Part shown: positions 3 through 17,056 of the stretch, piece by piece
Layout: each line of letters begins with the position of its first letter
Numbering within the stretch: the first letter of the stretch is position 1
DNA from: a virus
Virus record (IMG/VR): IMGVR_UViG_3300028025_000097
Reading direction: 5' to 3' (one strand)
DNA length: 64,000 nt
Made by a program: the position numbers and the translations under genes
The notes under the pieces: generated by a model
The model's input: only the letters and a program-made list of their open reading frames with translations
Told to the model about the DNA's origin: nothing
Databases searched by the model: none

Positions 3-704
3 CTTTTGCTGAGACGCAGTCAGACCGCGTTCCTTCAGCATACCCATCTCGACGACTTGCTTGATGCGAATCAAGTAGTCGCGGACAGACCGGAGACCTA
101 CGTCGATGTAGTGAGACCGGCTGATGAGCGCCTTGAAGTGCTCGCTGAGTCGGCTACCACCTTCGATGGCCATATCGAAGTCATAGTTGGTGATGAAGAT
201 GACAGAACCCTCGAACTCGAAGGACCAAGGCAACGGCGAACCGTCAGCATCGGTCATGCGAGTCTCGGCACCCCACATGATGCGGCGACGTTCAGTGGTG
301 TCGCACGCAGCCTTGAGAAGGTTAAGAGCGTCTGCGTCTTGGAAGACGGAGTCGCAGTCATCGAAGACGATGACGTCACCTTTGTGGCGATACTCGTAGA
401 GAGTCTTGTACAGGCCGGTCGGGCGGATGAAACCCTTGCAGATGGCCGCTTTCTTGCCGCTGTCGTCGTAGTCAGACACGACTTGCTCGACCGTGAAGGA
501 CTTGCCGAGGCCGGCAGGACCCGAGACGATCATCGCACGTGACTGGCCTTTGCAAGCCGACTGAGCCATGACACCGACGATCTCGAACATCTCCTTGAGA
601 CGGGCATCGATCTGCTCGTCAGTCTCGGTCACGATGGTGGTCATGACGCGAGGCGTGATAAGGTCGTTCTGTTTGGACTTGCGCTGATAAACTCCGCGAG
701 GCAT
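3..704 (-). CDS. AAA+/P-loop ATPase (runs off the left window edge; absent from ORF track)
   Basis: Manual translation from ATG at 704 (RBS AAGGAG upstream): MPRGVYQRKSKQ...MIVSGPAGLGKSFTV (Walker A)...VIVFDDCD (Walker B)...VIFITN; open to the edge. Confidence 0.85.
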   Translation of the reverse strand, partial: MPRGVYQRKSKQNDLITPRVMTTIVTETDEQIDARLKEMFEIVGVMAQSACKGQSRAMIVSGPAGLGKSFTVEQVVSDYDDSGKKAAICKGFIRPTGLYKTLYEYRHKGDVIVFDDCDSVFQDADALNLLKAACDTTERRRIMWGAETRMTDADGSPLPWSFEFEGSVIFITNYDFDMAIEGGSRLSEHFKALISRSHYIDVGLRSVRDYLIRIKQVVEMGMLKERGLTASQQK

Positions 705-733
705 TTGCTTACTCCTTGATTAACTATGAGTAT

Positions 734-762
734 ATTCTACGTATTTTACTAAAATAAGTAAA
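734..762 (-). promoter_or_regulatory. early sigma70-type promoter cassette copy A
   Basis: TTTACT-17 bp-TAGAAT; palindromic spacer TATTTT-AGT-AAAATA. Confidence 0.8.
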
Positions 763-1147
763 CAGCTAAACTCCCACAGTGGTCAGTCTCGACTTCTTGG
801 CCAGTCACCTTGGCCCAGGCCTTCAGGAACTTCTTACCGACGCCCAAGGTGACGTAATCATTTCCTTGCAAGCCCCACTCGGTGTACTCCACATCACGAC
901 CAGGCAGCCCAATTGAGTTGCAGAGCTTGCGGAAGTCAGCCAGCCATTTGCGATCGGTATAGATGTGCCCATGTTTCTCGGGGTTCCAGTCACTCTTCTT
1001 GAAAAAGGTCTTGATGACCCCGTATTCAAGTTCTTCATCCGTGTAGCAAATCTCGATACGCTTAATACCGACGTTGCGTTTCTCGCTTGACCAGAGACCA
1101 CCGCTTGTGCTGCAGATGGCGCCAGGGGTCTTGATGGTAGTCTTCAT
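749..1147 (-). CDS. hypothetical early protein
   Basis: ORF; likely start MKTTIK at 1147 after RBS AAGGA. Confidence 0.75.
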   Translation of the reverse strand: MKTTIKTPGAICSTSGGLWSSEKRNVGIKRIEICYTDEELEYGVIKTFFKKSDWNPEKHGHIYTDRKWLADFRKLCNSIGLPGRDVEYTEWGLQGNDYVTLGVGKKFLKAWAKVTGQEVETDHCGSLAVYLF

Positions 1148-1153
1148 GCTCGT

Positions 1154-1205
1154 TCCTTTATTCAACTGATGAGGCTATTCTACGTATTTTATCAAAATAA
1201 GTACA
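1154..1205 (-). promoter_or_regulatory. early promoter + RBS cassette copy B
   Basis: TGTACT-17-TAGAAT; 1154-1203 is identical to 3351-3400 (50 bp). Confidence 0.85.
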
Positions 1206-1208
1206 TGT

Positions 1209-1418
1209 CTAGACGTAGACAATTCGATGACCACGGCACCAGTCCTCCACCGAGTGGACCCAGCAAGAGACGTCGCTCGTGCCGATTTCGTCGACCTCGC
1301 CGACCATGTCCACCTGGAAGTCCACAGCGCTCTCGACCAAGTCGAGGCCATAGGTGTCCAGGAGGTCCACGCGGCCGGTGAGGATGCGGTGAATGATAGC
1401 GTTTTTGACTGCGTTCAT
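1209..1418 (-). CDS. hypothetical early protein
   Basis: ORF behind promoter cassette; contains EIGTSDVSCWV. Confidence 0.7.
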   Translation of the reverse strand: MNAVKNAIIHRILTGRVDLLDTYGLDLVESAVDFQVDMVGEVDEIGTSDVSCWVHSVEDWCRGHRIVYV

Positions 1419-1447
1419 GTTCATTCCTTTATTCATTTGATGTAGGT

Positions 1448-1476
1448 ATTCTACTTATTTTATTAAATAAAGTACA
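1448..1476 (-). promoter_or_regulatory. early promoter cassette copy C
   Basis: TGTACT-17-TAGAAT. Confidence 0.8.
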
Positions 1477-1550
1477 CTAGCCGCCAGGTGAAAAGGGGAT
1501 CAGTTCCTTAGCATTGTCCTTCCTCATCATCTCCCTGCATGGGAGAGACG

Positions 1551-1598
1551 CAAGTCATTGATTGTTCGTGCCAAAAGCCTTTATAAATCAATGACTTG
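1551..1598. repeat. 13-bp perfect inverted repeat; each arm matches the IHF consensus
   Basis: CAAGTCATTGATT (1551-1563) / AATCAATGACTTG (1586-1598); AATCAATGACTTG fits WATCAANNNNTTR. Confidence 0.7.
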
Positions 1599-1621
1599 TC
1601 TCAGTCGTTTTGCCAATCAAA

Positions 1622-2089
1622 TCAAAGACTTGTGGCCACGATGCTCTTTAGAGAGTTCACCCGGAACGACCGCCACGTCTTTTCTTCGGGCAAGAACACG
1701 GCGATGGACTCGCTCAGCTTCTTGACCGGTTTGCTTTCAACCTGCTCCACCTGAGGCAAAAGGTCAGGCTTCAGAGTACAGACCATCGTCCTCTCATCCC
1801 CGTTCACCTTGGTGAAGGTAACCTCGCATGGACCAGTCATGAGCTTCTGACGAATCTCCTCTCGACGGGCGACCAGGCCCCACGGGCAGTTGGACTCCCA
1901 GAGTTCATCGACCTGGGCCTCGAAGCCCAGTTCCTTGAGCTCGTTCATCTTGTCTGTCATGATTTTGACAGACTCCAGACCACGCTGCCATACACCATGG
2001 TCATCGCTATAGCTGTAGTACCAATCGTGGAGCGCCATGTGCTCCGCGAGGTCCTGTAGCATCATGTCAATCTCGGCCATCTTGCTCAT
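1622..2089 (-). CDS. two-domain protein with C-terminal SH3/Sm-like (WYL_2-type) beta-barrel
   Basis: C-terminus VTFTKVNGDERTMVCTL...WRSFRVNS resembles the phage WYL_2/SH3 barrel family; separate N-terminal HDWYYSYSDD domain. Confidence 0.65.
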   Translation of the reverse strand: MSKMAEIDMMLQDLAEHMALHDWYYSYSDDHGVWQRGLESVKIMTDKMNELKELGFEAQVDELWESNCPWGLVARREEIRQKLMTGPCEVTFTKVNGDERTMVCTLKPDLLPQVEQVESKPVKKLSESIAVFLPEEKTWRSFRVNSLKSIVATSL

Positions 2090-2103
2090 CTTCTCTTCTC
2101 CTT

Positions 2104-2346
2104 TTAGGTAAAGTCGTGGCCTTCACAGTAGGCCGCATTCTGAACGTTTTCCCAGGGATGATGCGATTTAACGCGGTCACGTTCACGCAGTTCGGTGGAC
2201 AGAGCGTACATCAGGCCTTCCAGTTCCTCGTTGGTCATCTCGCCCAGGTGGCAACCGATGGCGTACATCGCGATGGGGAGGTACTTGCTGGCATCGCCCT
2301 GGATGTCCATGATGCGAGCCGGTTCAAGAGTGTACTGTTTGCGCAT
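2104..2346 (-). CDS. hypothetical early protein
   Basis: ORF, start MRKQY after cassette RBS. Confidence 0.7.
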   Translation of the reverse strand: MRKQYTLEPARIMDIQGDASKYLPIAMYAIGCHLGEMTNEELEGLMYALSTELRERDRVKSHHPWENVQNAAYCEGHDFT

Positions 2347-2352
2347 GTTCAT

Positions 2353-2404
2353 TCCTTTATTCAATTGATGAGGCTATTCTACGTATTTTATCAAAATAAG
2401 TACA
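2353..2404 (-). promoter_or_regulatory. early promoter + RBS cassette copy D
   Basis: 49/50 identical to copies B/F; TGTACT-17-TAGAAT. Confidence 0.85.
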
Positions 2405-2408
2405 CAGC

Positions 2409-2915
2409 CTAGACGAGCTGCTCGAAGGTCAGCCCGAGCTGAGCGATGACCTTATCAGCCAACTCAGCCTCGCGGTCAAAGGCTTCCATTTCCCAGGGGA
2501 GGGCACGATAGGCCTTGTAGCTGCTGCCGACCTTGACGTGTTCACCGTTCCAGTACTGGTTCCAGTGACCAGAGGCAGCGCTCATCGTCGCAGTCAGACG
2601 ACCTTGGTGGTACTGCTCAGCGTGGACCAACTCGTGGGCCAGTGTCTGAATGGCCGTCTGCAGAGGCAATCGGCAATCCAGTTCTACCGTCTTCACCTTG
2701 TACCAGTATTGGCCGTGCTTCGTACGCTTACGAATGGCCGTCACTCGGAAGGTCGTATCCTCGTGGAAGTCCAAGAGACCGCGAAAGGCCGACTCAGTCT
2801 TCTGAATGAGCTCGGCAATCGGGTAGGCCGTCTTGGGAAAGTGGTACCAAGCAGAGGCGGACATCTTGATACGGGGGGAAGAGCTGAACAGCTTGTCGTG
2901 TTTGTCGCTAGTCAT
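2409..2915 (-). CDS. putative zinc metallopeptidase (HExxH)
   Basis: TLAHELVHAEQY...LPWEMEA. Confidence 0.7.
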   Translation of the reverse strand: MTSDKHDKLFSSSPRIKMSASAWYHFPKTAYPIAELIQKTESAFRGLLDFHEDTTFRVTAIRKRTKHGQYWYKVKTVELDCRLPLQTAIQTLAHELVHAEQYHQGRLTATMSAASGHWNQYWNGEHVKVGSSYKAYRALPWEMEAFDREAELADKVIAQLGLTFEQLV

Positions 2916-2944
2916 TTTGTATCACCTTTGTTCATCATGAAGTA

Positions 2945-2973
2945 ATTCTACATATTTTATCAAAATAAGTAAA
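2945..2973 (-). promoter_or_regulatory. early promoter cassette copy E
   Basis: TTTACT-TATTTTGATAAAATATG-TAGAAT. Confidence 0.8.
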
Positions 2974-2975
2974 TG

Positions 2976-3182
2976 CTAACCGTCAACTCGTTTGAAGTGG
3001 ACGACCTCGTACTCGGAGGTCGTGGAATTCCAGTGCGTCAAGATGGCCCGGCCTTGGTCTTCTTTTAATTGCTCGATTACGGCTTCCTTCTTGTCCGCAA
3101 AGTTGGGATTGTCCAAGAAGAACAAGTAGACCGTGGTCTCGAACTTAAAAGCACCAACTTGGCATAAGACTATCATATCCAT
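2976..3182 (-). CDS. hypothetical protein
   Basis: Likely start MDMIVL, TAATG-coupled to the upstream ORF. Confidence 0.6.
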   Translation of the reverse strand: MDMIVLCQVGAFKFETTVYLFFLDNPNFADKKEAVIEQLKEDQGRAILTHWNSTTSEYEVVHFKRVDG

Positions 3183-3343
3183 TACGCGTACTCCATCCAT
3201 TCTTGTTGGTCATCCCACTGGCGGCAGAGGTCGTTCTCGGCCTGGTGCATGGCGCAAAGCTCGTCCCAAGTGTAGAGACGGTCACCGGCGCGCTCGTACT
3301 CCAAGAAGTAGTCCATGATTTCGCTAAAGTGCATGCGTTCCAT
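3182..3343 (-). CDS. small acidic early protein, 53 aa (not in ORF track)
   Basis: AAGGAG RBS; MERMHFSEIMDYFLEYERAGDRLYTWDELCAMHQAENDLCRQWDDQQEWMEYA*. Confidence 0.7.
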   Translation of the reverse strand: MERMHFSEIMDYFLEYERAGDRLYTWDELCAMHQAENDLCRQWDDQQEWMEYA

Positions 3344-3350
3344 GATGTTC

Positions 3351-3402
3351 TCCTTTATTCAACTGATGAGGCTATTCTACGTATTTTATCAAAATAAGTA
3401 AA
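3351..3402 (-). promoter_or_regulatory. early promoter + RBS cassette copy F
   Basis: TTTACT-17-TAGAAT; identical to 1154-1203. Confidence 0.85.
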
Positions 3403-3408
3403 CTGGCC

Positions 3409-3597
3409 CTAGTAGCCTCGGCCACCAAGTTCACGGTCAAGGGCCATTTCGGCCTGGCGCTCGAGATTCTGAATGGTGTGCCTGAGTTCAGTGCGATACT
3501 TCATCAGGTCCTTCACCTTGGCATCGGCTTGGAGAAGCTCTTTGTATAGATCGTCTAGTCTCTCCTGGAGATCCTCATAGCTCTGCGCGGAGCTCAT
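3409..3597 (-). CDS. hypothetical coiled-coil protein
   Basis: ORF, ATGA-coupled to the upstream ORF; heptad-like Leu pattern. Confidence 0.65.
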   Translation of the reverse strand: MSSAQSYEDLQERLDDLYKELLQADAKVKDLMKYRTELRHTIQNLERQAEMALDRELGGRGY

Positions 3598-3719
3598 CGC
3601 GCTTCTCCTTTGTGTTTCGTCTTACGGTTGTACTTGGTGCGGTCCCGCTGCACTTTGTGGCGAAAAAGGTTGCCGGTGCAATACAGTTCAGTCGCTCGGA
3701 GGCGTTTTGGCTTGGTCAT
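3594..3719 (-). CDS. 41-aa highly basic peptide, ArfA-like (not in ORF track)
   Basis: MTKPKRLRATELYCTGNLFRHKVQRDRTKYNRKTKHKGEAR*; GGAG RBS; first gene after promoter G. Confidence 0.6.
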   Translation of the reverse strand: MTKPKRLRATELYCTGNLFRHKVQRDRTKYNRKTKHKGEAR

Positions 3720-3746
3720 GGTCATCTCCATATTCATTATGGAGCC

Positions 3747-3775
3747 ATTCTATATATTTTATCAAAATAAGTACA
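3747..3775 (-). promoter_or_regulatory. early promoter cassette copy G
   Basis: TGTACT-TATTTTGATAAAATATA-TAGAAT. Confidence 0.8.
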
Positions 3776-3782
3776 TTAGGCC

Positions 3783-4016
3783 CTAGCTTCCACCCCAATG
3801 AGTTGCCACAAGACCAACTGGTGTCTTGTCATTTCTTGAGAGCTTCAAGACTTTGTATTCGCCTTTGGAGATGGCCATGTCGAATTCTTCTGCATATCCT
3901 TTATAAGCAAATTGATGCACGAAGATCTCACGACAATGCTCGAGCGACTTGGCCTTGATACAGACCATGCCTGCCCAATAATCAGACAAGACTTCTTCGA
4001 TGATATAGAGGTTCAT
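3783..4016 (-). CDS. hypothetical protein
   Basis: ORF with GGAG RBS, ends in WGGS. Confidence 0.7.
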   Translation of the reverse strand: MNLYIIEEVLSDYWAGMVCIKAKSLEHCREIFVHQFAYKGYAEEFDMAISKGEYKVLKLSRNDKTPVGLVATHWGGS

Positions 4017-4044
4017 AATATATTATCTCCCGTAGGGGCATGCG

Positions 4045-4139
4045 CGAGGGTACTTTTGCCCGGGTTTAGGTGTGAGGTGATACGAGGGTACTTTTGCCCG
4101 GGTTTAGGTGTGAGGTGATACGAGGGTACTTTCTCCCGG
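4045..4139. repeat. 38-bp tandem direct repeat (2 perfect copies + partial third)
   Basis: CGAGGGTACTTTTGCCCGGGTTTAGGTGTGAGGTGATA at 4045 and 4083; degenerate copy at 4121. Confidence 0.95.
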
Positions 4140-4442
4140 AGACCATAGCTTTCTTACTCGTTCCCATTCTTTACGGTCGCAATCATGACCAAGAGGAAGC
4201 CAAGCAGCCTGCGGATTGTGCATCCGTTCCCTGTCATCATTTCCAAATTCTTCTTCAAGTTCCCGTTGAATAAGAGCCTTAACATTAGGTGGAAACTTAT
4301 CCCAGTTAGCAATAAGCCAATCAGCACATTCGCCAACGATGTAAGTCATTCGACCGAGGCAGTAACGAAAAGCGGAAGTTGCCATCAGCCCATTCATGCC
4401 CCATGCTTCTTCGAGAGTCAATTCTGGTTTAATTTTTTTCAC
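4104..4442 (-). CDS. hypothetical phage protein
   Basis: AFRYCLGRMTY motif; GGAGG RBS. Confidence 0.7.
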   Translation of the reverse strand: MKKIKPELTLEEAWGMNGLMATSAFRYCLGRMTYIVGECADWLIANWDKFPPNVKALIQRELEEEFGNDDRERMHNPQAAWLPLGHDCDRKEWERVRKLWSPGESTLVSPHT

Positions 4443-4445
4443 TTT

Positions 4446-4664
4446 TTATCCTCCTTCAATTCCAAAGTGTTCTTTAATTAAAGAGACACAATAATCATGA
4501 GATCTTGGATGAATGTCTCTTGTGTCGTGTTCAAGAACGTCAATACATCCCTGCAAAATCAACTCAGCGAACTTTTCCGCAAAAGATACAGGATGCCCAA
4601 AATCTGGACTTACCGCAGTAGCATCCCAAGCCCGTTCAGCAAGTTTATAAATTCGTTCATTCAT
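4446..4664 (-). CDS. small protein, MNERI...KFAELI..EC...HFG paralog family
   Basis: MNERIYKLAERA...KFAELILQGC...IKEHFGIE. Confidence 0.75.
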   Translation of the reverse strand: MNERIYKLAERAWDATAVSPDFGHPVSFAEKFAELILQGCIDVLEHDTRDIHPRSHDYCVSLIKEHFGIEGG

Positions 4665-4939
4665 TATTTAATTCCAAAATGTTCTTTTAGTTCATCACAA
4701 GCCATTTTACTTTGTTCTTCACAATTGTTTAAGATGCCCATTCGAGTAATACGGGTAATACTTTCTTGAATAATCAACTCAGAGAACTTTGCATAGGCTG
4801 CTCTACATTCCTCAGAACTCATTGCCCTAGGATACGGTCTTCCATTCCAATCAACGTATAACTCAGCCTGTACAGCCAATTCTAGAATTCGGTTGTTCAT
4901 TTCTGCCCCCTTCCAATTGTATAACTGAACTTCATTCAT
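4664..4939 (-). CDS. small protein, same paralog family (alternative start at 4900)
   Basis: MNNRILELAVQA...KFSELIIQES...LKEHFGIK. Confidence 0.75.
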   Translation of the reverse strand: MNEVQLYNWKGAEMNNRILELAVQAELYVDWNGRPYPRAMSSEECRAAYAKFSELIIQESITRITRMGILNNCEEQSKMACDELKEHFGIK

Positions 4940-4948
4940 TCTTCCTCC

Positions 4949-5185
4949 TTAATGCCAGATATGCTTTACACCGATGCAAAGATTTCCTTCTTTGCTATTA
5001 CGATGACGAGCAGCAGAAGTAAAGCTGTCACCCTCACCGCACTTGTCAATGGTGCGGAGCAAATCGCGGAAAGTTGCACCGATAAGATCCCGAGAAGAAG
5101 CTCTCCCTTCAAGGATCAGTTCACCATCCTTGAATACTCGGCAACCATATTCGGTGCCGAGCCAAGTAACTTTTGTAGTGTACAT
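4949..5185 (-). CDS. hypothetical protein
   Basis: ORF with GAGGA RBS behind promoter H. Confidence 0.7.
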   Translation of the reverse strand: MYTTKVTWLGTEYGCRVFKDGELILEGRASSRDLIGATFRDLLRTIDKCGEGDSFTSAARHRNSKEGNLCIGVKHIWH

Positions 5186-5215
5186 AATAAGATCCTCGTT
5201 TCAATTTATAAGTCA

Positions 5216-5244
5216 ATTATAATCTATAAATTAAAATAAGTAAA
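5216..5244 (-). promoter_or_regulatory. early promoter copy H
   Basis: TTTACT-17-TATAAT. Confidence 0.75.
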
Positions 5245-5249
5245 CAACT

Positions 5250-5657
5250 TTATTCTTGCCCAACATCTTCAACACGATGGCAAGTGTTACACCGAGTCTT
5301 CAACCAGCTATTATCTTCAATGACCTTGCCTTTGTCACCACAAATTTCACAGATACGCCTACTCATGGATTCAGCCATTGTGATCAGTCCGAGGATATAT
5401 TCATCTCCACCGTCAATATAGAACCTAAGCTCACCAAACTTTTCTTTGACTTGCATAACGACGACTTGAGGAGCATCACCGCCTCGACCATATACTATAT
5501 GATTCTGAATGTGACCGCATAGAAAGTTGATAAGATCATACCATCCATCGCCACAGTCAAACCCCCAACACATAGCAGTTTCTTGGGGAGAACCGTTTCT
5601 CTGAGCAAAGAGTACAGGATACTTTTCGCACAGTTGTTTATCTAGTTCTGGACTCAT
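5250..5657 (-). CDS. conserved phage hypothetical protein with C-terminal Cys motif
   Basis: GFDCGDGW, QVKEKFGELRFY, CEICG...C..CH. Confidence 0.75.
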   Translation of the reverse strand: MSPELDKQLCEKYPVLFAQRNGSPQETAMCWGFDCGDGWYDLINFLCGHIQNHIVYGRGGDAPQVVVMQVKEKFGELRFYIDGGDEYILGLITMAESMSRRICEICGDKGKVIEDNSWLKTRCNTCHRVEDVGQE

Positions 5658-5887
5658 TCTTCAATTCCAAAATGTTGTTTTAAAAGATTAGGATATTCAC
5701 TGGCAGGAATTCTATGATCTATAAAATCTTGAATAACTATGCCGCATTCCTGCACAATCAATTGAGCAAAATCTATGACCTCTTGTTGATCTGCATAACC
5801 TGAGACAAAGTAGTTTGGAGGAGTTTCGTTGTCAATGTAATTTAAGAGATGTGCCTTGAGTCCAAATTCAATAATTCGTTTGTTCAT
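5654..5887 (-). CDS. small protein, MNERI paralog family
   Basis: MNKRIIEF...FAQLIVQEC...LKQHFGIEE. Confidence 0.75.
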   Translation of the reverse strand: MNKRIIEFGLKAHLLNYIDNETPPNYFVSGYADQQEVIDFAQLIVQECGIVIQDFIDHRIPASEYPNLLKQHFGIEE

Positions 5888-6096
5888 CGTAATTCCTTTA
5901 ACACTTCTGCAAATGTAAATGATCGACCAGTAGTATAAACAATGTCAAAACTATCATTCACAATGTATTTCCGATTTCGGTTGCAATTTACATATTCGCC
6001 TCGATCATCATCAATATAAACCTGTCGCATCTGGGTGAAGGTATGATCCACATTACCATCAACGACGACTCGGGTAGTAATTTTGCGTTTGGTCAT
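5884..6096 (-). CDS. hypothetical protein
   Basis: ORF with ATGA overlaps on both sides. Confidence 0.65.
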   Translation of the reverse strand: MTKRKITTRVVVDGNVDHTFTQMRQVYIDDDRGEYVNCNRNRKYIVNDSFDIVYTTGRSFTFAEVLKELR

Positions 6097-6329
6097 CCCT
6101 TCCCCCTTGCGCGGATTGCATCACCATAGGTTCCGCCACCTTCACATAAGATATGATCGACTAATTGAGCGCACGCTTCGCGCTCGGTGGCGAAGACCAG
6201 CGCGGCGAAGCGTTCAAGGTCTGCTTCAATGCCAGTAAAAACAAGCTCAGGTTTGTAGTTAAAAAATTCGTCGCGGTCTACATCGAACCCCGCCTCCTGC
6301 GCCAGCCGAACCATATCTTTACTATTCAT
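6093..6329 (-). CDS. small protein related to the paralog family, EREAC...AIRARG tail
   Basis: MNSKDMVRLAQEAGF...LERFAALV..EREACAQLV...AIRARG. Confidence 0.7.
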   Translation of the reverse strand: MNSKDMVRLAQEAGFDVDRDEFFNYKPELVFTGIEADLERFAALVFATEREACAQLVDHILCEGGGTYGDAIRARGKG

Positions 6330-6850
6330 TTGTGTTCCCCCCTTGCGCGAATTGCATCGACCATTCTGTCTGCATCGACCCCTCGCCACATATCCTGCAC
6401 CAGTCGGCAAATTGCCTCACGCTCGTTCTCTCGTTCTTCTTTCAGTCTATCAGCAAACTTTTCTGCAAGAGCATCAAAGAATACCTTAGCACTCTCTTCA
6501 GCATCTCCTTCAAACATCATCACGCCACTATTGAAGTCAAGTCTTCCAATCCGGCGACCATCAATGTGAAACTCAACATTATAATCTGGTTTGAATTTGT
6601 ATTGTGTAATAGACCGGCGACCATCAATGTGAAACTCAACATTATAATCTGGTTTCAATTTGTATTGTGTAATAGAAAGGGATTTAGTATTGGTTTCTGT
6701 AATTTCTTTCATAGATTCTTTGCCTTTATTCTGTTCTTCCATCCAGCGAACAGCCATCGTAAAGATATCGAGTTCGCTTAGACGATACCGAGGAGAGCTA
6801 GCAAGACGCTTAAATGCTTCTAAGATTTCTTCTTTGGATAGTTCTTTCAT
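6326..6850 (-). CDS. hypothetical protein with internal 21-aa duplication and EREAI...AIRARG tail
   Basis: SITQYK(L/F)KPDYNVEFHIDGRR x2. Confidence 0.65.
   Translation of the reverse strand: MKELSKEEILEAFKRLASSPRYRLSELDIFTMAVRWMEEQNKGKESMKEITETNTKSLSITQYKLKPDYNVEFHIDGRRSITQYKFKPDYNVEFHIDGRRIGRLDFNSGVMMFEGDAEESAKVFFDALAEKFADRLKEERENEREAICRLVQDMWRGVDADRMVDAIRARGEHK
6551..6676. repeat. 63-bp in-frame tandem duplication
   Basis: 6551-6613 vs 6614-6676, one mismatch. Confidence 0.95.
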
Positions 6851-7059
6851 TTTTTGATACCAAATCGATTCACACGCAACCATTCTAACTGATTAGCAGC
6901 TTCATCGTGTCCGTGGAAAAAAAGATTGTCAATGCACTCTTGAATGATCAACTCAACAAATCGTTCAGTTTGTTGCCACGCTTCTTCGGTAGCCATTCCT
7001 AATGCATAGGATTTTATTCCGGCTTGAATTGCGAGGTCTTCAATTTTTTGTCTTGTCAT
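6847..7059 (-). CDS. small protein, MNERI paralog family
   Basis: IEDLAIQAGI...RFVELIIQEC...RFGIKK. Confidence 0.75.
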   Translation of the reverse strand: MTRQKIEDLAIQAGIKSYALGMATEEAWQQTERFVELIIQECIDNLFFHGHDEAANQLEWLRVNRFGIKK

Positions 7060-7298
7060 TTTTTGTGTAATACCTCGGTTAACCGATCAATGACCAACTG
7101 TAAATCTTCTCTTGTTAGATACAGGTCAATTTCACCATCGTCTTCTGGAAAGTCCGAGCTTTCGTTTAGGATAAGCTCGAATGCTTTTCCATCGTCCCAA
7201 ACATCCCTAATCAATAAATTAACATAACTGTTATCTGCATCATACACGAGCTTTGAAAATATGGTCATCCGAGGTGGTGTTTTCATTATGTATCTCAT
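7056..7298 (-). CDS. hypothetical protein
   Basis: ORF in tightly coupled array. Confidence 0.6.
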   Translation of the reverse strand: MRYIMKTPPRMTIFSKLVYDADNSYVNLLIRDVWDDGKAFELILNESSDFPEDDGEIDLYLTREDLQLVIDRLTEVLHKK

Positions 7299-7504
7299 TA
7301 TGAACCTGCTACTTTATCTAAGAATAACCGGAGTACCATTTCTTCAAACAATTCCTCGTTCCTCGTTAACTTGTAAACGTTTAGCAAATGCTTGTCGCCC
7401 ATCTCAGAAATTTTCATTCGTTTCCCGTCTCGTGTTCTCCACCATCCGGGTTCAAGATCATCCTCGTCATACCCATCATACCCTTGATCTTCAATCCAAC
7501 TCAT
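7298..7504 (-). CDS. hypothetical protein
   Basis: WRTRDGKRMKISEMGDKHLLN, a common small phage protein pattern. Confidence 0.65.
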   Translation of the reverse strand: MSWIEDQGYDGYDEDDLEPGWWRTRDGKRMKISEMGDKHLLNVYKLTRNEELFEEMVLRLFLDKVAGS

Positions 7505-7689
7505 TATGAACCTCTCAGTCTAAAGATTTCTTTACAGAGTTTTTGATTCAACTCAGACACCTTGAGTTCCAGTTCTTCAATCCTGTTAGCGGCTTCTGCA
7601 ATACAAGCATTTGCCACTCCATCATCAGACTGTACATCCTCTGATAAGATACGAAGAGCTTTGATGAGGGTGTTAGATTTAGTTTTCAT
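7504..7689 (-). CDS. hypothetical protein
   Basis: SDDGVANACIAEAANRIEEL. Confidence 0.65.
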   Translation of the reverse strand: MKTKSNTLIKALRILSEDVQSDDGVANACIAEAANRIEELELKVSELNQKLCKEIFRLRGS

Positions 7690-7915
7690 CTCGCATCCAA
7701 CGAGGTTCAAACCAATTGAGAGTCGTCTTCATACCCAAAATATGGTTTTCAATTTCGACAATATCTTTTTCTTTGTCGCTTGTAAAGACGCCAAAGGAAT
7801 TGTCATTTCGATTACGATTGTCCAGTTCCATTTCCAACAATGCGATACTGTCTTTGAGTTCATCAACTACAATTTGACTTACTTGGTCTTCAAACAATGT
7901 GATTGTCACTTCCAT
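7679..7915 (-). CDS. hypothetical protein
   Basis: ORF with GGAGA RBS. Confidence 0.65.
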   Translation of the reverse strand: MEVTITLFEDQVSQIVVDELKDSIALLEMELDNRNRNDNSFGVFTSDKEKDIVEIENHILGMKTTLNWFEPRWMRDEN

Positions 7916-7924
7916 TTTAATCTC

Positions 7925-8287
7925 CTATTCGTTACAGATACCGCAGCAATCAGAGTCGCCACAGAGAGGGTCTAGTTCTTGATGAATCTTAGAAAGCTCT
8001 TCTAAAGCTTCTTCTTTGTAATCAATCTTCTTGACAAACTCAAACTTCTTCTCATCAGACCAATCTCTAAGATAATGGTTATCCTCATCAAAGAGCTTCA
8101 GGTATTCGTCATCATCAATTTCACGAACAGACGATATCACTTCATCGACATGATACTGAGAGAATTCATCAAAGTTAGTATCATGAAGGCGCATCACGAC
8201 TTCATCGGTGGCGTGAGTCGCTTCCTTAGCTTCTACAACATAACGCATCCGAAAGATGCTAACAGTCTCAACCATGTACTTGTTCAT
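7925..8287 (-). CDS. conserved hypothetical phage protein
   Basis: KYMVETVSIFRMRYVVEA...EFSQYH; C-terminal CGDSDCCGIC. Confidence 0.7.
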   Translation of the reverse strand: MNKYMVETVSIFRMRYVVEAKEATHATDEVVMRLHDTNFDEFSQYHVDEVISSVREIDDDEYLKLFDEDNHYLRDWSDEKKFEFVKKIDYKEEALEELSKIHQELDPLCGDSDCCGICNE

Positions 8288-8454
8288 ATGCCAATTACCT
8301 CATTTTCTTGTTCATTAAGCAATTTGTCTTTAATATGTAGATGCCAACGAACTCGTGAATCCCAATCAAGGCGAACACGAGCAGCAGTAATAAGAATCAC
8401 CAGGGTAACGACTAAGTCTACCCAGGCAATTAGCCAAGTCTTAAAGTTGTTCAT
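8284..8454 (-). CDS. small membrane-associated hypothetical protein
   Basis: MNNFKTWLIAWVDLVVTLVILITAA hydrophobic stretch. Confidence 0.5.
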   Translation of the reverse strand: MNNFKTWLIAWVDLVVTLVILITAARVRLDWDSRVRWHLHIKDKLLNEQENEVIGI

Positions 8455-8671
8455 CTTCTTCTTGTTCCCAGTAACGGCAATAGAAATGATCGCCAAAAGA
8501 TTCAATAAGACTTTGAGGATAGCCACACTCAATCAACCAATCATTAAATGCAGTTGTATTAGTTCCTGTTTGACGAGCATACTTAAGCTTTTCCATTACT
8601 TCTTCTGGAACTGGGCGAGGAAATCCATATTTCCAACCGCTCGGCGGATCACATATCGTTACTTTAGCCAT
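8441..8671 (-). CDS. conserved hypothetical phage protein
   Basis: DPPSGWKYGFP...WLIECGYP. Confidence 0.7.
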   Translation of the reverse strand: MAKVTICDPPSGWKYGFPRPVPEEVMEKLKYARQTGTNTTAFNDWLIECGYPQSLIESFGDHFYCRYWEQEEDEQL

Positions 8672-8699
8672 CTTAAACCTTTCATATTAATAAGTAAAT

Positions 8700-8905
8700 A
8701 GGTGCTGGTTACAGTATCCAGCGTCATCACAGTCTGATTGCCTCACTGACGTGAGTAGCTGTATGACTGATTGGTTGAAGACGTGTGGTTTAAGAATGTA
8801 AGATGTAGAGGGCGGGCGATCAACTCCGACAAGACTCTTTCATCTGCCTACATTCTACCTGGGGAATTCTCCGCGTCACCAATACACCACAAGGTCTTGG
8901 TGCGT
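8700..8905 (-). ncRNA. candidate structured non-coding RNA downstream of the hammerhead
   Basis: No credible ORF; stems 8878-8883/8770-8775, 8847-8856/8793-8802, 8763-8767/8723-8727, 8751-8755/8742-8746, 8718-8722/8704-8708. Confidence 0.55.
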
Positions 8906-8961
8906 GTCCTTGACGGGACGTCCCTGTCCCGTTTCGACCATTCAGGTCTCATCAGAAGGAC
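8906..8961 (-). ncRNA. hammerhead ribozyme (type I)
   Basis: Minus-strand RNA GUCCUU-CUGAUGA-GACC(UGAAU)GGUC-GAAA-CGGGAC(AGGGAC)GUCCCG-UC^AAGGAC: full catalytic core and three perfect stems; predicted cleavage between 8912 and 8911. Confidence 0.92.
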
Positions 8962-9899
8962 TATGCAGCTTCGGCCATCTTCACCGCAAGTTCAAGAGCA
9001 TCGGCCTTGACCTTCTTGCCTTGACCAAACCAAGCGGAAGTCAGTCGATTATCCTGACTGCGACCAAGCTTGTGGTCAATCATGTAGGTGACGGCGTTAA
9101 AAGCAGACCACCAGCTACCTTCAGCAAAGTTAGCACCAGGCTGAGTGTGTACTACATCAAGAGCTTTAGAAGCAGAGATGCTCATCTCCTTCTTCTTCTC
9201 AGGACCACCGGTCACAGGGAAGACAGTCTTGAAGTACTCGACCAGCTTAGGATCAGTGTAGCGACGACCGCCAAGGAACTCAGCCATCTCACGGTACATG
9301 ATCAGCTTTTCCTTAGCCACTCCCAGGGTTTCTTTTACCATGTCACCATCAAACTGGCGACGATGAGAGACCTTCACAAAGTTCTTACTCGCAGTATTCA
9401 GACTCAGAGTAAGAGTGTTGTTGCACACTACTCGAATCGGAGTGAAGCGAACGTCAATGCTCCAACCATAACGATGCGGATTGCTAAAGAGCAAGTAGCT
9501 ATCGACCTGGTCACCCTTAAAGAGTTCGAAGCCATCATTCACCTTGGCAAGAGCCCACACCAACTGACCATCACGAAGACTGCCAGCAGTGTGCATCTCC
9601 ATGTCGCCATTAGCCACAAAGTCGTGGAAGAACTCGAACGCTTCATGATTCTGAAGCACATTCCAATCATCAGACACTACGTCCAAGATGGAGTCATCAG
9701 AGTCGCGAACAAGAGCAGAACGGCCGACCGCAACACGTTCACCCGCCACTTCAGCGTAAGCAGGAACCTTACGAACCGTCCAATCGAGACCAGCCTTTTC
9801 AAGCATCTGCGTAGGATGCAGATCAGACGGAACACGAACACCAAGACCATGCCAAGGCACTTCACCAGCGTAAGCCATCGTTTCAACCATATGAGCCAT
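8961..9899 (-). CDS. DUF932 family phage/plasmid protein
   Basis: MAYAGEVPWHGLG...AGLDWTV...TAGSLRDG...TPIRVVCNNTL. Confidence 0.85.
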   Translation of the reverse strand: MAHMVETMAYAGEVPWHGLGVRVPSDLHPTQMLEKAGLDWTVRKVPAYAEVAGERVAVGRSALVRDSDDSILDVVSDDWNVLQNHEAFEFFHDFVANGDMEMHTAGSLRDGQLVWALAKVNDGFELFKGDQVDSYLLFSNPHRYGWSIDVRFTPIRVVCNNTLTLSLNTASKNFVKVSHRRQFDGDMVKETLGVAKEKLIMYREMAEFLGGRRYTDPKLVEYFKTVFPVTGGPEKKKEMSISASKALDVVHTQPGANFAEGSWWSAFNAVTYMIDHKLGRSQDNRLTSAWFGQGKKVKADALELAVKMAEAA

Positions 9900-9934
9900 G
9901 ATTTATATCCTCGTTTATTTCAATTTACAGTAGA

Positions 9935-9963
9935 ATTATATAGTATTTACTAAATTAAGTACA
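9935..9963 (-). promoter_or_regulatory. early promoter copy I
   Basis: TGTACT-17-TATAAT upstream of DUF932. Confidence 0.75.
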
Positions 9964-10185
9964 CAGCGCCTGCATAATTTCTTTGAGCTCTTCTCCCTTT
10001 ACATTCACAAAAGTTCTACGCTTCTTGATGAATGTAGAGGGAGACAGGCGCATGAGCTCATTGAATCCCTTACGCTTGTATGCCACAAGCCGGCCATTCT
10101 CAAGAATATACGTGTGATTGGGGTAGGTCCAATCGCTCGTGGTCTCCTTGAGGACTTCAATCTTCTTCGTGTCGCTTTTCATCAT
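9955..10185 (-). CDS. hypothetical protein
   Basis: LKETT..W.YPNHTYIL pattern. Confidence 0.7.
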   Translation of the reverse strand: MMKSDTKKIEVLKETTSDWTYPNHTYILENGRLVAYKRKGFNELMRLSPSTFIKKRRTFVNVKGEELKEIMQALCT

Positions 10186-10191
10186 AAGGTA

Positions 10192-10220
10192 ATTCTATAT
10201 ATTTTATAAAATAAAGTACA
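10192..10220 (-). promoter_or_regulatory. early promoter copy J
   Basis: TGTACT-17-TAGAAT. Confidence 0.75.
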
Positions 10221-11906: not shown

Positions 11907-12177
11907 TATAGCGGATCTAGTCAATAAATACGGGTTTCCTATTATCTCTGCCGCTGGTTGCGGATATATGATATTTTATGTGTGGAAATGGGCAACTGAA
12001 ACTGTTAAACCAGTCTTATCAGATGCTCAGACAACTCTGATTGCTCTCATCGATCGTGTTCGAATGCTTGACAATGATCTTATACGTCTTAATCAAAAAG
12101 TCAACGTAGCTTTGATGATAAGGGAAAAAGATGTTGCTAAGAATAAGTCTGACACTTCTTCTGATAACGACAAATAG
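11899..12177 (+). CDS. single-TM coiled-coil membrane protein (YvrJ/holin-like)
   Basis: YGFPIISAAGCGYMIFYVW...LIDRVRMLDNDLIRL. Confidence 0.65.
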   Translation: MDDIADLVNKYGFPIISAAGCGYMIFYVWKWATETVKPVLSDAQTTLIALIDRVRMLDNDLIRLNQKVNVALMIREKDVAKNKSDTSSDNDK

Positions 12178-12571
12178 TCTTGCCACAGAATTAGGCTTCT
12201 CGTTTAAGTCTCCTTCGTTCTCTGGTATAGGCTATTCATCTCATATTCAAACAATAGAGAACACTGAGAACTCAAGAAAAGAAGCTATCAAGTCAAAGCA
12301 TCAGGCTGAGATTGATAAAGCTGCTGCTGACTATAAGAACACAAATCTTCAGAAATTCTTGAATAACTTTGAATCAAGGGTCTATGCTCAGTTGTCTACT
12401 CAGTTAGTCAATTCATTGTTTGGTGAGAATCCTAAAGAGAAAGGAACAATTGAGCTTGAGGGTAATACCATCAACTACATCAAGACTGGTGATACGATAA
12501 GTCTTACTGTTCGAGCAGAAGACGGAAGCGTGACTCAGATTGAGATTCCAGTCGGGCAGTTTAAATTCTGA
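12131..12571 (+). CDS. csgF: curli assembly component CsgF-like
   Basis: Signal peptide, mature N-terminus TELGFSFKSPSFSG resembling CsgF F-x-N-P-x-F-G-G; C-terminal G..T.I.IP; directly before csgG. Confidence 0.75.
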   Translation: MLLRISLTLLLITTNSLATELGFSFKSPSFSGIGYSSHIQTIENTENSRKEAIKSKHQAEIDKAAADYKNTNLQKFLNNFESRVYAQLSTQLVNSLFGENPKEKGTIELEGNTINYIKTGDTISLTVRAEDGSVTQIEIPVGQFKF

Positions 12572-13338
12572 TGAAGTGGTTATGGATAGTAATCATAATG
12601 TCTTTATCAGGCTGTGCTTTCCCTGTGTATCCACTAAAGTATACACACGATGAGCCAAAGGTTCTTAAGCCAACATATACTAAGATGATTCCTGAGCCTA
12701 AGAACGGTAAAGTCATTGTAGCTGTTTATTCATTTGCTGATAAGACTGGTCAACGTAAAGACAGTGGTATGGTTGCTAAGTTATCTTCTGCTGTGACTCA
12801 AGGTGCAGAGTCTATATTGATCAAGTCATTGCAAGAAGTAGGTGACAGACATTGGTTTAGAGTGGTAGAAAGAGTTGGGCTTGACAATCTATTAAAAGAA
12901 CGTCAACTCATTCGTTCGTCAAGAGAAGAAGTAAAAGATGATTCCGAATTAAGACCCATCATATATGCTGGAATGTTGATTGAGGGTTCTATTGTAGCTT
13001 ATGATACAAATGTAAAGACAGGTGGTATGGGTGCAAGATGGTTAGGAGTAGGACCAAGTACCCAATACCAAGAAGATTTAGTGACGGTCTCAATTAGAGC
13101 AATCTCTGTTCAGACCGGTGAAATACTGATGACGATCAATGCACAGAAGTCTGTACTCAGTGTTGCAACGAATGTCTCTACTTTTAAGTTTTTAGAACAA
13201 GGCACCGCCAATCTTGAAGCAGAAGTAGGTGTCACATCAAACGAACCGGGACTCTATTGTTTACAGAGAGCAATCGAAACAGCAGTAGAAGAAATGGTAT
13301 ACGAAGGAAAGAAACTCGGAGTCTGGGACTTCAAATAG
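12571..13338 (+). CDS. csgG: curli secretion pore CsgG-like lipoprotein
   Basis: Lipobox LSGC; VAVYSFADKTGQRK, SAVTQG, WFRVVER.GLDNLLKERQLIR, EGSIVAYDTN. Confidence 0.9.
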   Translation: MKWLWIVIIMSLSGCAFPVYPLKYTHDEPKVLKPTYTKMIPEPKNGKVIVAVYSFADKTGQRKDSGMVAKLSSAVTQGAESILIKSLQEVGDRHWFRVVERVGLDNLLKERQLIRSSREEVKDDSELRPIIYAGMLIEGSIVAYDTNVKTGGMGARWLGVGPSTQYQEDLVTVSIRAISVQTGEILMTINAQKSVLSVATNVSTFKFLEQGTANLEAEVGVTSNEPGLYCLQRAIETAVEEMVYEGKKLGVWDFK

Positions 13339-13348
13339 GGAGAAAGAG

Positions 13349-14053
13349 ATGAAAAGGTCTATCGCATTGATTATGTCAATGATGATATCTTATATGGCGT
13401 TTGCTGTAGACAGTGGAGGCAATTCTGTCTATATCGATCAAACAAATGCTGACAACTCAACAGTTACAATTACACAGACTGGTTCTGGTAACAATATTGG
13501 TGATCCTGATGATGGTGTTACACCAGCATTTGTTATGGATGGTAACAACCTAGATATTACTATGACTCAAAATGGCATGAACAACGACATCGTAGGTAAC
13601 CTTATTGGTGGAGACACAACTGCTGTCATTACTCAAGACGGTAGCTTAAACTACCTTAAGACCACTCAAGGTTCTTTTGGTACACTCAATGGCAATCTAC
13701 ATCTAACGTTTACTGGTGATTCTAATTCAACTGAGCTTAATTTTGCATCGACAAACAATACCTCTAACTATGATTACAATATGACAGTCACTGGTGATAG
13801 TAATGATATCACAAGCACGATGAACAGTAAGTATATCGACAATGATATCGCCATTACTGGTGATACTAACATTATTACAACCACACAGATTGGGTATAAC
13901 GGAACTGCTTCTGTTCACGGTCATAAGATTGACTTCAATCTAATTGGTTCTAATAACACATTCGATATTCTCCAAAATGGTGTAACAACACATGACACGA
14001 TTGTCCTTAACTTTACTGGTGACAATAGTACTGTCAACATTACTCAGCACTAA
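13349..14053 (+). CDS. secreted curlin-repeat-like beta-solenoid protein
   Basis: Signal peptide; repeated I/T-x-Q/T-G-D/S-x-N units, Asn/Thr/Gly rich; follows csgG. Confidence 0.65.
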   Translation: MKRSIALIMSMMISYMAFAVDSGGNSVYIDQTNADNSTVTITQTGSGNNIGDPDDGVTPAFVMDGNNLDITMTQNGMNNDIVGNLIGGDTTAVITQDGSLNYLKTTQGSFGTLNGNLHLTFTGDSNSTELNFASTNNTSNYDYNMTVTGDSNDITSTMNSKYIDNDIAITGDTNIITTTQIGYNGTASVHGHKIDFNLIGSNNTFDILQNGVTTHDTIVLNFTGDNSTVNITQH

Positions 14054-15041
14054 TTCTTTTGCTGGTATAGGGTCAGTTACTGAAGAAAAGGGTCTCGGCA
14101 ATATTGTTCGTGATAAGACCGATATTGCCGCTGCCCTTGATGTTCCCGTAAATAATTTAGACAATCTTATTACAGGAAACGGAGTCGTCGGTGTTACTTT
14201 TAAAGATGACACCAAAGTAAGAGTCACTGAACATTCTAAGCTCTTGATCGACGACTTCGTTTATGATTCAAATAAAAAAGGAGCAGGGAAACTCGCTCTT
14301 AAAGTTGCCATTGGAACCGTAAGATATGCATCAGGCAACATAGCACACGAAAACAATAACTCTGTCAATATAAAGACTCCTACTGCTACAATTGCTGTTC
14401 GTGGTACTGCTTTCACAATGACGGTAGACGAGGTAGGGCAGTCATTAGTCGTTCTTCTTCCAAATATAGACGGTTCTGTAGGCTCTATTGAAGTCGCTAC
14501 TGCAATGGGAATCGTCAGTCTTAGTATGCCGTTTCAGGCAACCTTTACATCAAGTAGCGAAGTGAAACCATTGAATCCAGTTCAGCTTAATCTAAGTGAA
14601 TCTGCTATAAATAATATGTTAATAGTAAGCCCTCCAAAAGAAATCTTGGATAAGTTGATCAAAGAAGCAGATGACCGATCTGGTGCTTCTCTTGAATTTG
14701 ATGGACTTGATGTCAATGAATTAGATCAAGACGTATTCAAAAAAGATGAATTAGCATTTAACGAACTTGATGTCAATTCATTGGATTCAGATTTCCTTAC
14801 GAATGAATTAGATAATGCATTGACTGCGACTTTCAGTAAGGGATACAATTCCTCCACTCAGGTTTATGTCATCGATAAGAATACATTTTGGTGGATTCAA
14901 AGAATGGTTAAAGACAACATTACGATGTATGTCAACAAAGAAAGAGGATATAACATTACGATGATACAAGGAACTACTATTGTATCATTGAAGACTGATG
15001 ATTCAACAACTAACAACATCTTCATAAAGCAGACACAATGA
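13992..15041 (+). CDS. FecR-domain secreted protein
   Basis: Signal peptide; TGNG..GVTFKDDTKVRVTEHSKLLIDDFVYD, IKTPTATIAVRGTAF. Confidence 0.85.
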   Translation: MTRLSLTLLVTIVLSTLLSTNSFAGIGSVTEEKGLGNIVRDKTDIAAALDVPVNNLDNLITGNGVVGVTFKDDTKVRVTEHSKLLIDDFVYDSNKKGAGKLALKVAIGTVRYASGNIAHENNNSVNIKTPTATIAVRGTAFTMTVDEVGQSLVVLLPNIDGSVGSIEVATAMGIVSLSMPFQATFTSSSEVKPLNPVQLNLSESAINNMLIVSPPKEILDKLIKEADDRSGASLEFDGLDVNELDQDVFKKDELAFNELDVNSLDSDFLTNELDNALTATFSKGYNSSTQVYVIDKNTFWWIQRMVKDNITMYVNKERGYNITMIQGTTIVSLKTDDSTTNNIFIKQTQ

Positions 15042-17056
15042 AATATATCAAAAAGATTTTACTCTCGCCTTGGACTGCATTATTCACTCTGACTTTAGTC
15101 CTCTTCATTCGTTCACAAGATCCAGCATTTCTACAGTCTATTCGATTAAGATACTTCGATACACTTATCACTTCAAAGCAAGCACATCAATCTGAAAGTA
15201 TCAACGTAGTTAATATCGATGATGATACTATCAAGCAATTTGGTCAGTTTCCTTTCCCCAGAGACAAGTATGCTCAGATCATAGAGAATCTATTCAAGCA
15301 CAATGCAGGTCTTGTAGTCTTTAACATCTATATGCCTGATGCCGATAGATTTGGTAAGGATGGTGCGTTTGCTAACAGAATGTCGGTACAAGCTTTTCCT
15401 GTCGTCTTTCCTCAAATGGCAGGAACATCTAAATCCAGTTATGAACCATTTCGGCCCGGTGTCTCAGAGATTGGTGATTCTGCGACAGACTATACGATTC
15501 AATATGAAGCAATAGAACCTAATGTACAAGAGATTAATAATGTAGCGAAAGCAGTAGGAGTGGCAAATGTATTACCAGAAATTGATGGTGTTGTTAGGCG
15601 TGTTCCTATGGTCGTCTCAAGTGGAGGCAAGTTATATCCATCAATTGGACTTGAAACTCTGCGACTTGCCAGCGGAGACCCTAGCTTTCAGGTCAAATCA
15701 AATGCAGGAATCGAGGCTCTACGAATCCCAAGTTATGGAAAAATCACAACAGACTCTATCGGAAGAATCTGGGTGGATTGGTCTTCCAAACCAAATGAGT
15801 TTTCGTATAGTAAATTACCAGAAGATTTTGGACAGTCAATCGTTATTGTCGGAGTCACAGCAAAGGGACTCAATAATCCAATCGCAACTGCCGTGGGTGA
15901 ACAATTTCCTCATTACCTTCAAGCTTCCGTATTAGACACTCTTATCTCTGGTACAAATATCAGTCGTCCTGTTTGGGCTGATGGCGCTGAGATGTTGTTC
16001 TCTGTTCTAATAGTAATCATATCGTTATTCTTGATGCGCTTTATGATTGCTGGATATGTGTTTCCTCTTATAGCAATCGCAGGAATATACTATGGCTCTA
16101 AATACTATTTCATCAAAGAATCTTTGTTACTTGATGCTATCTTTCCAATCAGTGCTCTTCTTCTTTGTTTTATGCACGCTTATGTGGTGAAATTCATCTC
16201 TGAATGGCATCAAAAGCAGCAAGTCAAGAAGCAGTTTGGTACTTATCTATCGCCTGCATTGGTCGAGAAATTACAAAAGAATCCAGATCTATTGAAGCTC
16301 GGTGGTGAATCTAAAGAGCTATCGATTATGTTCACAGACGTTCGTGGGTTTACTGCGATCTCTGAGCATTACGGCGCAGACGTTCAAGGTCTAACTTCTA
16401 TTATGAATCGATATATGACGGCAATGACAGAGAAGATCATAGAGAACAATGGTACGCTTGATAAGTATATTGGTGACGCTCAGATGGCATTTTGGAATGC
16501 TCCTCTGGATGATCCACAACATGCCAAAAATGCAGTAAGAACAGCAATACAAATGATGGAGAGTTTAGATGAATTTAATCGACAAATTGAGCCTGAAGGT
16601 ATTCCTGCTTTTGGAATGGGTTTGGGTATTAACACTGGGACTGTTGTCGTTGGCAATATGGGTAGCGTTCAGCGTTTTGATTATACCTGTCTCGGTGATT
16701 CTGTCAATCTTGCTTCAAGGTTGGAAGGTCAATCCAAACCGTATGGAGTTCGAATTATATTGGGACCAATTACAGCGGAACAAGTCAAAGACGAATTCAA
16801 AATAGTAGAATTAGATTGCATTGCTGTTAAAGGTAAGAAGTTAGGCGTTAAGATTTACACACTTGGAGAAGAACCAATGCAAGAGAAATTCCTTTCAGAA
16901 TACTATGCAGGTAATTGGGATGAAGCTACGTTGATAGCTGAAGAAGCTGCTCGTAAGAATAAAGAGCTTAAGAAGTACTATGAAGCAATGATCGATCGCA
17001 TGAAAGAAGGTAAACCAGAAGACTGGGATGGCACTTATAGAGCAACATCAAAATAA
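15038..17056 (+). CDS. CHASE2-domain class III adenylate cyclase
   Basis: N-terminal TM + CHASE2 (VVNIDD..GQFPFPR, DGVVRRVP), 3 TMs, catalytic FTDVRGFT, DKYIGDA (Lys = ATP), GDSVNLASRLEG, VKGK. Confidence 0.92.
   Translation: MKYIKKILLSPWTALFTLTLVLFIRSQDPAFLQSIRLRYFDTLITSKQAHQSESINVVNIDDDTIKQFGQFPFPRDKYAQIIENLFKHNAGLVVFNIYMPDADRFGKDGAFANRMSVQAFPVVFPQMAGTSKSSYEPFRPGVSEIGDSATDYTIQYEAIEPNVQEINNVAKAVGVANVLPEIDGVVRRVPMVVSSGGKLYPSIGLETLRLASGDPSFQVKSNAGIEALRIPSYGKITTDSIGRIWVDWSSKPNEFSYSKLPEDFGQSIVIVGVTAKGLNNPIATAVGEQFPHYLQASVLDTLISGTNISRPVWADGAEMLFSVLIVIISLFLMRFMIAGYVFPLIAIAGIYYGSKYYFIKESLLLDAIFPISALLLCFMHAYVVKFISEWHQKQQVKKQFGTYLSPALVEKLQKNPDLLKLGGESKELSIMFTDVRGFTAISEHYGADVQGLTSIMNRYMTAMTEKIIENNGTLDKYIGDAQMAFWNAPLDDPQHAKNAVRTAIQMMESLDEFNRQIEPEGIPAFGMGLGINTGTVVVGNMGSVQRFDYTCLGDSVNLASRLEGQSKPYGVRIILGPITAEQVKDEFKIVELDCIAVKGKKLGVKIYTLGEEPMQEKFLSEYYAGNWDEATLIAEEAARKNKELKKYYEAMIDRMKEGKPEDWDGTYRATSK

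Follow-up and report, generated by a model that had tools for sequence, protein, structure and literature searches.

The hammerhead ribozyme described here, on the minus strand of a 64,000-nt phage sequence (hereafter the window), likely frees a knotted RNA of ~128 nt. Two copies of this RNA would pair by the tips of their long arms, giving a stable, two-headed decoy or scaffold that works in trans; we give this composite reading a probability of about one half. Its parts are not equally firm. That cleavage matures the downstream RNA is very probable, and the trans-acting role as decoy or scaffold is a tentative proposal. The predicted cut likely serves the release of this RNA rather than ending the message of the neighbouring gene. 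By sequence comparison, the ribozyme is linked to the RNA domain that follows it, helix P1 and the knot of this domain covary, and the arm tip stays self-complementary while its sequence changes. The system is a known ribozyme with an uncatalogued, probably dimeric client RNA.

RESULTS

A type I hammerhead ribozyme 3′ to the DUF932 gene

The window derives from a T4-like myophage, as judged from its portal, major head, sheath and polymerase families. The preliminary description of this locus had recognized a canonical hammerhead, and the core segments CUGAUGA, GAAA and GUC, together with stems I (6 bp), II (4 bp) and III, are indeed all present on the minus strand (Table 1). Rfam search returned Hammerhead_1 (RF00163) at 35.0 bits (cut-off 34, E 5.3e-5). 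Among 17 homologues the hammerhead pairing was kept in 236/236 cells, and stems II and III covaried, with 31 double changes against 9.1 in shuffles. The minimum-energy fold is the hammerhead fold (z -2.45), and a strict hammerhead descriptor gave one match in the window against none in each of 200 dinucleotide shuffles. In the window copy stem I is open and stems II and III are closed, which is the type I layout. The element is thereby placed, from its sequence, among the RF00163 type I hammerheads and is predicted to self-cleave; the cut position 8912|8911 put forward earlier is the predicted site and agrees with the motif. We also considered the RAGATH-1 pseudoknot hammerhead (RF03152) and rejected it (24.2 vs 56.3 bits), stem II being a covarying 4-bp helix and not a very short one.

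Table 1. Features of the ribozyme locus, given as positions in the window
Feature	Position	Strand	Basis or remark
DUF932 / TIGR03299 gene, 312 aa	8961..9899	-	PF06067 E 1.3e-38; TIGR03299 match
Early-promoter-like site 5′ of DUF932	9935..9963	-	1 of 15 repeated-motif matches; candidate only
Type I hammerhead ribozyme	8906..8961	-	RF00163 match, covariation, shuffle control; predicted cut after C8912
Hammerhead stem I	8961-8956 with 8911-8906	-	6 bp
Hammerhead core CUGAUGA	8955-8949	-	
Hammerhead stem II	8948-8936	-	4 bp, 5-nt loop
Hammerhead GAAA	8935-8932	-	
Hammerhead stem III	8931-8914	-	6 bp and A15.1-U16.1 pair
Hammerhead GUC triplet	ends at C8912	-	
Predicted 128-nt 3′ product, pseudoknotted RNA starting AAGGAC	8784..8911	-	62 distinct modules; no Rfam match
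Helix P1 enclosing loop ACCU-UGU-GGU-GUA	8904-8897 with 8882-8874	-	Covariation
Pseudoknot helix, loop with RNA 3′ end	8891-8886 with 8789-8784	-	Covariation
Probable 3-bp knot extension CCU/AGG	8894-8892 with 8860-8858	-	Near-invariant, one-sided changes only; candidate pairing
Variable hairpin P2	8872-8861	-	Constrained folds
Long arm P3	8791..8857	-	Sequence variable, length conserved
Self-complementary hexamer UGAUCG, G.U ends, candidate kissing loop	8817..8822	-	Arm-tip palindrome survey
Second hairpin element 3′ of module	8700..8768	-	7/62 modules, all close relatives; fold z -1.73; outside conserved unit

An early promoter had likewise been proposed at 9935-9963. A repeated motif matches the window 15 times, 14 of them on the minus strand, and this site is among those matches, but it is absent from the list of a generic sigma-70 scan. 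Ten promoter-like copies of the motif, at 734-10220 (minus strand), head small-ORF cassettes. Elsewhere in the window, CsgF, CsgG, curlin-repeat, FecR and CHASE2/adenylate cyclase genes were found at 12131-17056 on the plus strand, opposite to the rest of the phage.

The RNA data for this locus are assembled contigs of 8/24 RNA runs, a format that cannot show RNA ends. Contigs cover the DUF932 gene. In two studies they end at 8928 with no loose end, which, in this comparison of RNA runs alone, is at most a weak hint of an RNA end. The cut site is bridged by a single RNA-library contig, which counts against the cleavage-release reading, though its stem I carries two changes (at 8910 and 8907).

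The ribozyme and the RNA 3′ to it form a conserved unit

We scanned viral and metagenome contigs with patterns and obtained 62 distinct modules, window included. Sixty-one of them, falling into 22 clusters (80% single linkage), were analysed further; L267, in which the knot was mis-parsed, was left out of the fold, covariation, palindrome and length analyses, and the module of L296 is cut by a contig end. We observed a tight linkage of the two parts in both directions. The hammerhead-only pattern detected 36 loci, of which 33 carried this same domain 3′ of the ribozyme and 3 were chance matches, and the domain-only pattern detected 58 loci, 20 of them true and all 20 with the ribozyme. No ribozyme-free copy was seen among the other 38 domain-pattern matches, the best of which by the domain model (24.4 bits, L200) was judged to be chance. 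Among metagenome matches, 48/54 had both parts, 3 were cut by contig ends and 3 were chance. Similarly, ribozyme-free copies were absent from 69 GTDB matches and from a relaxed scan of all collected loci (98 matches, 96 with the core and 2 cut by contig ends), these being patterns that would miss a ribozyme-free copy with a divergent core. Judged by these surveys, conservation extends to the hammerhead and the RNA of ~110-135 nt directly 3′ to it as one unit (the RNA being 8911-8784 in the window), not to the stop-codon overlap, and the hammerhead appears as the fixed front end of a small RNA in many unrelated lake and river phages.

Across the 61 modules the ribozyme core tolerates limited variation, with U, C or A at N7 and a cleavage triplet that is GUC in 44, GUA in 14, AUC in 2 and GUU in 1. 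Beside these, core variants with GUAA or GAUAA replacing GAAA and with long stem III inserts were noticed in L173, L175, L178, L293, L316, L324, L336 and L342. A stem III insert of ~40 nt is common to L188, L268 and L288, and its start also occurs 3′ of DUF932 in L067.

The genomic settings are diverse. Module loci range from 37 to 57% GC and belong to T4-like and higher-GC phages. No neighbouring gene is common to them, the largest shared protein family being present in 9/28 loci, and no downstream gene is shared across module loci. tRNA genes lie within 1 kb of 22/62 modules, and 13 modules are followed by a tRNA that begins 2-20 nt past the knot. Nine of the 62 start 9-29 nt past a sigma-70-like -10 box (7/432 for background windows) with no gene in front; at these promoter-proximal modules the cut removes nothing but a brief leader plus the 5′ portion of the ribozyme. 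Four queries gave no convincing module match in cultured phages, and neither PaP3 1-6000 nor the T4 tRNA cluster contained a match.

Several further observations concern single loci. A Betaproteobacteria-1 RNA (RF02932, 92.6 bits) lies ~190 nt past the module of a 55% GC phage (L337:1039-1154). In L166 and L303 the hammerhead is intact and the domain decayed, with P1 broken and the palindrome absent. In L008 and L067, tRNA-like ends were found 3′ of the DUF932 stop; they may resemble a two-piece tmRNA.

Anatomy of the downstream RNA

The predicted product measures 109-183 nt across the family and 128 nt in the window. It consists, in this order, of an AAGGAC(A) tail, P1 with the loop ACCU-NNN-GGU-GYA, P2, AGG, P3, AA and a last strand pairing into the P1 loop. 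In 17 cluster representatives, P1 was paired in 77/85 cells (53.3 in shuffles) and the knot in 58/66 variable cells (46.6 in shuffles). These counts were reached by 0/5000 shuffles, the 3′ strand of the knot having been chosen as the best-pairing AAC site and the shuffles ignoring relatedness. In an 18-row MAFFT alignment, 98% of cells were paired, with 36 double changes against 13.5. The CCU/AGG extension showed no compensatory change.

Neither in the window nor in 29 related loci did the domain reach the cut-off of any Rfam family. A second known ribozyme within it (HDV, twister, pistol, hatchet or hairpin) was rejected for lack of an Rfam match, and the strand orders of these ribozymes do not fit the domain. 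We found no description of a hammerhead plus knotted-RNA module in the literature. A 55-nt branch of two hairpins is inserted in the long arm of L002 and L294, beside the hexamer hairpin. The second hairpin element (8700-8768) was not found elsewhere in viral contigs.

The arm tip is self-complementary

A Watson-Crick palindromic hexamer was observed 22-30 nt before the 3′ strand of the knot in 18/22 clusters (47/61 modules), where 8% would be expected judging by the remaining RNA; this distance range was chosen after seeing the data. Allowing symmetric G.U pairs extended the count to 20/22 clusters (57/61 modules). Moreover, the palindrome falls in the apical loop of the predicted fold in 14/22 clusters versus 3.0 in shuffles. 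Sixteen different hexamers were picked among the 22 rows; hence self-complementarity is kept, not the sequence. The window hexamer, UGAUCG, is palindromic only as RNA and is weak (-4.8 kcal/mol); the relatives L156 and L283 carry UGAUCA at the arm tip. The four modules out of 61 without a hexamer at the set distance are L166, which is decayed, L158, where it lies at 34 nt, and L002 and L294, with the inserted branch.

Maintenance of a self-complementary tip at a fixed distance points to what is probably a kissing-loop homodimer, and the arm-tip palindrome resembles the HIV-1 dimer initiation loop. As a counterpoint, inverted-repeat mutation can yield palindromic hairpin centres in absence of selection for dimers. 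An arm-tip 16-mer was also met outside modules, between tRNA genes of other phages (L091:1501-1516 and L105:1501-1516), in a scan whose matches were mostly chance.

DISCUSSION

A model of RNA release

In the simplest scheme, transcription from 9963-9935 would run through DUF932, and self-cleavage after C8912 would generate the ~128-nt pseudoknotted RNA with a 5′-OH end, leaving the DUF932 mRNA with a 2′,3′-cyclic phosphate as a by-product. That cleavage gives a 5′-OH start to a downstream structured RNA had been suggested; with the cut itself a prediction, this suggestion is supported and now becomes the main point. The 5′-OH start and the 3′ knot would both protect the released RNA, as follows from the behaviour of RNase E and of 3′ exonucleases. 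Its 3′ end might be set by RNase P in tRNA arrays and by trimming in the window, where no terminator was found 3′ of the module; the product may thus stay joined to the downstream mRNA. Two copies would then pair through their self-complementary arm tips to form a homodimer that sets its two conserved cores a constant distance apart; that these cores bind a host protein or complex is a guess.

One may go further and imagine a new class of self-maturing phage RNAs, in which the ribozyme is the built-in maturase of a pseudoknotted RNA free of protein. Dimerized by its kissing loop, this RNA would serve as a two-headed, ruler-like ligand and clamp a pair of identical host machines, such as ribosomal subunits gripped via the conserved AAGGA 5′ tail, or an enzyme of defence or decay that is itself a dimer. 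We present this extension as speculative and somewhat unlikely.

Alternative explanations

The preliminary description proposed that the ribozyme sets the 3′ end of the DUF932 mRNA, in a manner coupled to translation termination, and we now regard this as very improbable. The overlap itself is real: stem I opens with the G of the DUF932 UAG stop, and 11 modules preserve this exact overlap, with protein identities as low as 76%. UAG also terminates 11/11 module-bearing DUF932 genes versus 5/75 ribozyme-free relatives, a bias equally well explained by one insertion inherited in a clade. However, these 11 modules all belong to one sequence cluster. Among the 62 modules, another 2 overlap a different stop and 49 overlap none, and TAG opens 26/62 whether or not it is a stop codon. 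Seen from the gene, the ribozyme follows the DUF932 stop in only 4 of the best 80 of 310 DUF932 loci, which leaves the definition of the mRNA end unsupported as its purpose. Coupling to termination fares no better with only 13/62 hammerhead copies overlapping any stop codon; stem I and the core would lie under a ribosome positioned on the DUF932 stop, which would therefore delay, not trigger, cleavage. The stop-codon fusion is a local feature and not a conserved one.

Other schemes keep the conserved unit and change its role. A cis-acting cassette, with the hammerhead cutting long phage transcripts and the knot serving as a nuclease-blocking 5′ cap for downstream small ORFs and tRNA precursors, is unlikely. 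It agrees with the processing of polycistronic RNA proposed for phage hammerheads in the available text of PMC3088659 and PMC6765202, with the position of the module, always upstream of same-strand genes, and with the missing terminator in the window; yet it leaves the palindromic arm tip unexplained, and where the next tRNA lies within 20 nt (13 modules) RNase P would cut the element off. We consider quite improbable an allosteric ribozyme in which folding of the domain, ligand binding or dimerization controls cleavage, for instance by strand exchange between two CCU and two AGG segments of stem I and the knot. The 3′ strand of stem I is near-invariant (AAGGAC in 60/61 modules) while stems II and III vary freely, and the stem I triplets recur in the domain core. 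The near-invariance has, however, to be read with search patterns that favoured an AAGGAC-type stem I, and a contact with loop II may lie behind it; this loop is conserved, mostly as U-N-A-N-U, and no partner strand was identified for it. Furthermore, stem I was predicted with a probability of 0.8-0.97 with or without the domain, upstream coding RNA included and knots being outside the model, and no regulated gene class appeared among the neighbours. Hardly credible is a selfish mobile RNA, freed by the hammerhead, linked as a dimer by its palindrome in a retrovirus-like way and copied to new sites by borrowed enzymes: the same module does occupy varied sites in phages of different GC content, but it is single-copy in the window and in 5/5 records, has a single ribozyme, was found with RtcB in 0/5 records (all incomplete) and was not detected in GTDB genomes by pattern searches.

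The available text of PMC6765202 treats the role of bacterial and phage self-cleaving ribozymes as an open question. If release of the knotted RNA is the function here, a hammerhead with one fixed client RNA would point to a concrete role, 5′-end maturation of a noncoding RNA. This client is small enough for in vitro synthesis, and its covarying palindrome allows a direct test of the homodimer.

Comparison with known systems

The ribozyme shares its core, three stems, open stem I, GUC triplet and intergenic setting with the type I hammerheads of phages and prophages (RF00163; PMC3088659, in its available text). It differs from the RF00163 hammerheads of phages and prophages in its stem I, which is short and near-invariant and has the same knotted domain 3′ to it in every case. 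Five module motifs had no match in 11 supplements of PMC3088659.

A likeness to the domain was seen in the COG2908 RNA motif (RF02939), which has the core loop ACCUUUcGGUGUA in its consensus too, likewise within a helix. This loop is present, exactly or nearly, in many module relatives, and the window differs at two loop bases. The best RF02939 match falls on the core loop of the module in 4/5 viral records, although its scores on modules (11.6-21.4 bits) stay below the cut-off of 58.7, with no match in the window. Unlike the module, RF02939 is a 45-nt cis-regulatory model without ribozyme, knot or arm, and the comparison is with the model and not with true members: none scored above cut-off in 151 genomes, and a COG2908 RNA pattern gave 4 matches, all chance, in three sets of 401. 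COG2908 RNA may be a fragment of a fold related to the module domain.

As to self-cleaving RNAs in phage tRNA arrays, the theta ribozymes come to mind, which in the accessible portion of PMC10879173 have an HDV-like fold and cut at the tRNA 3′ end, whereas the hammerhead cuts at least 40 nt into the module and starts a separate RNA. Identity with them was rejected on the grounds of the hammerhead core, the absence of an HDV-type Rfam match and the cut inside the module. The setting also recalls rnaC and rnaD of T4 (NC_000866), stable RNAs of 139 and 119 nt in a myophage tRNA cluster; the module model matched neither of them, neither is preceded by a hammerhead core, and both were discarded as members.

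Finally, ROOL and GOLLD are, like the module, phage RNAs found near tRNA islands and of unknown function according to the part of PMC12286853 available. Module products are 109-183 nt and not >600 nt, and in absence of an Rfam match identity with ROOL or GOLLD was rejected. ROOL, GOLLD and OLE are five to seven times larger, and the same part of PMC12286853 describes no self-cleaving ribozyme for them. It does describe loops of OLE and GOLLD that switch palindromes, which supports their intermolecular kissing bridges, and the tip of the module likewise switches palindromes. The knotted RNA would correspond to ROOL and GOLLD, the oligomeric phage RNAs, at a much reduced size.
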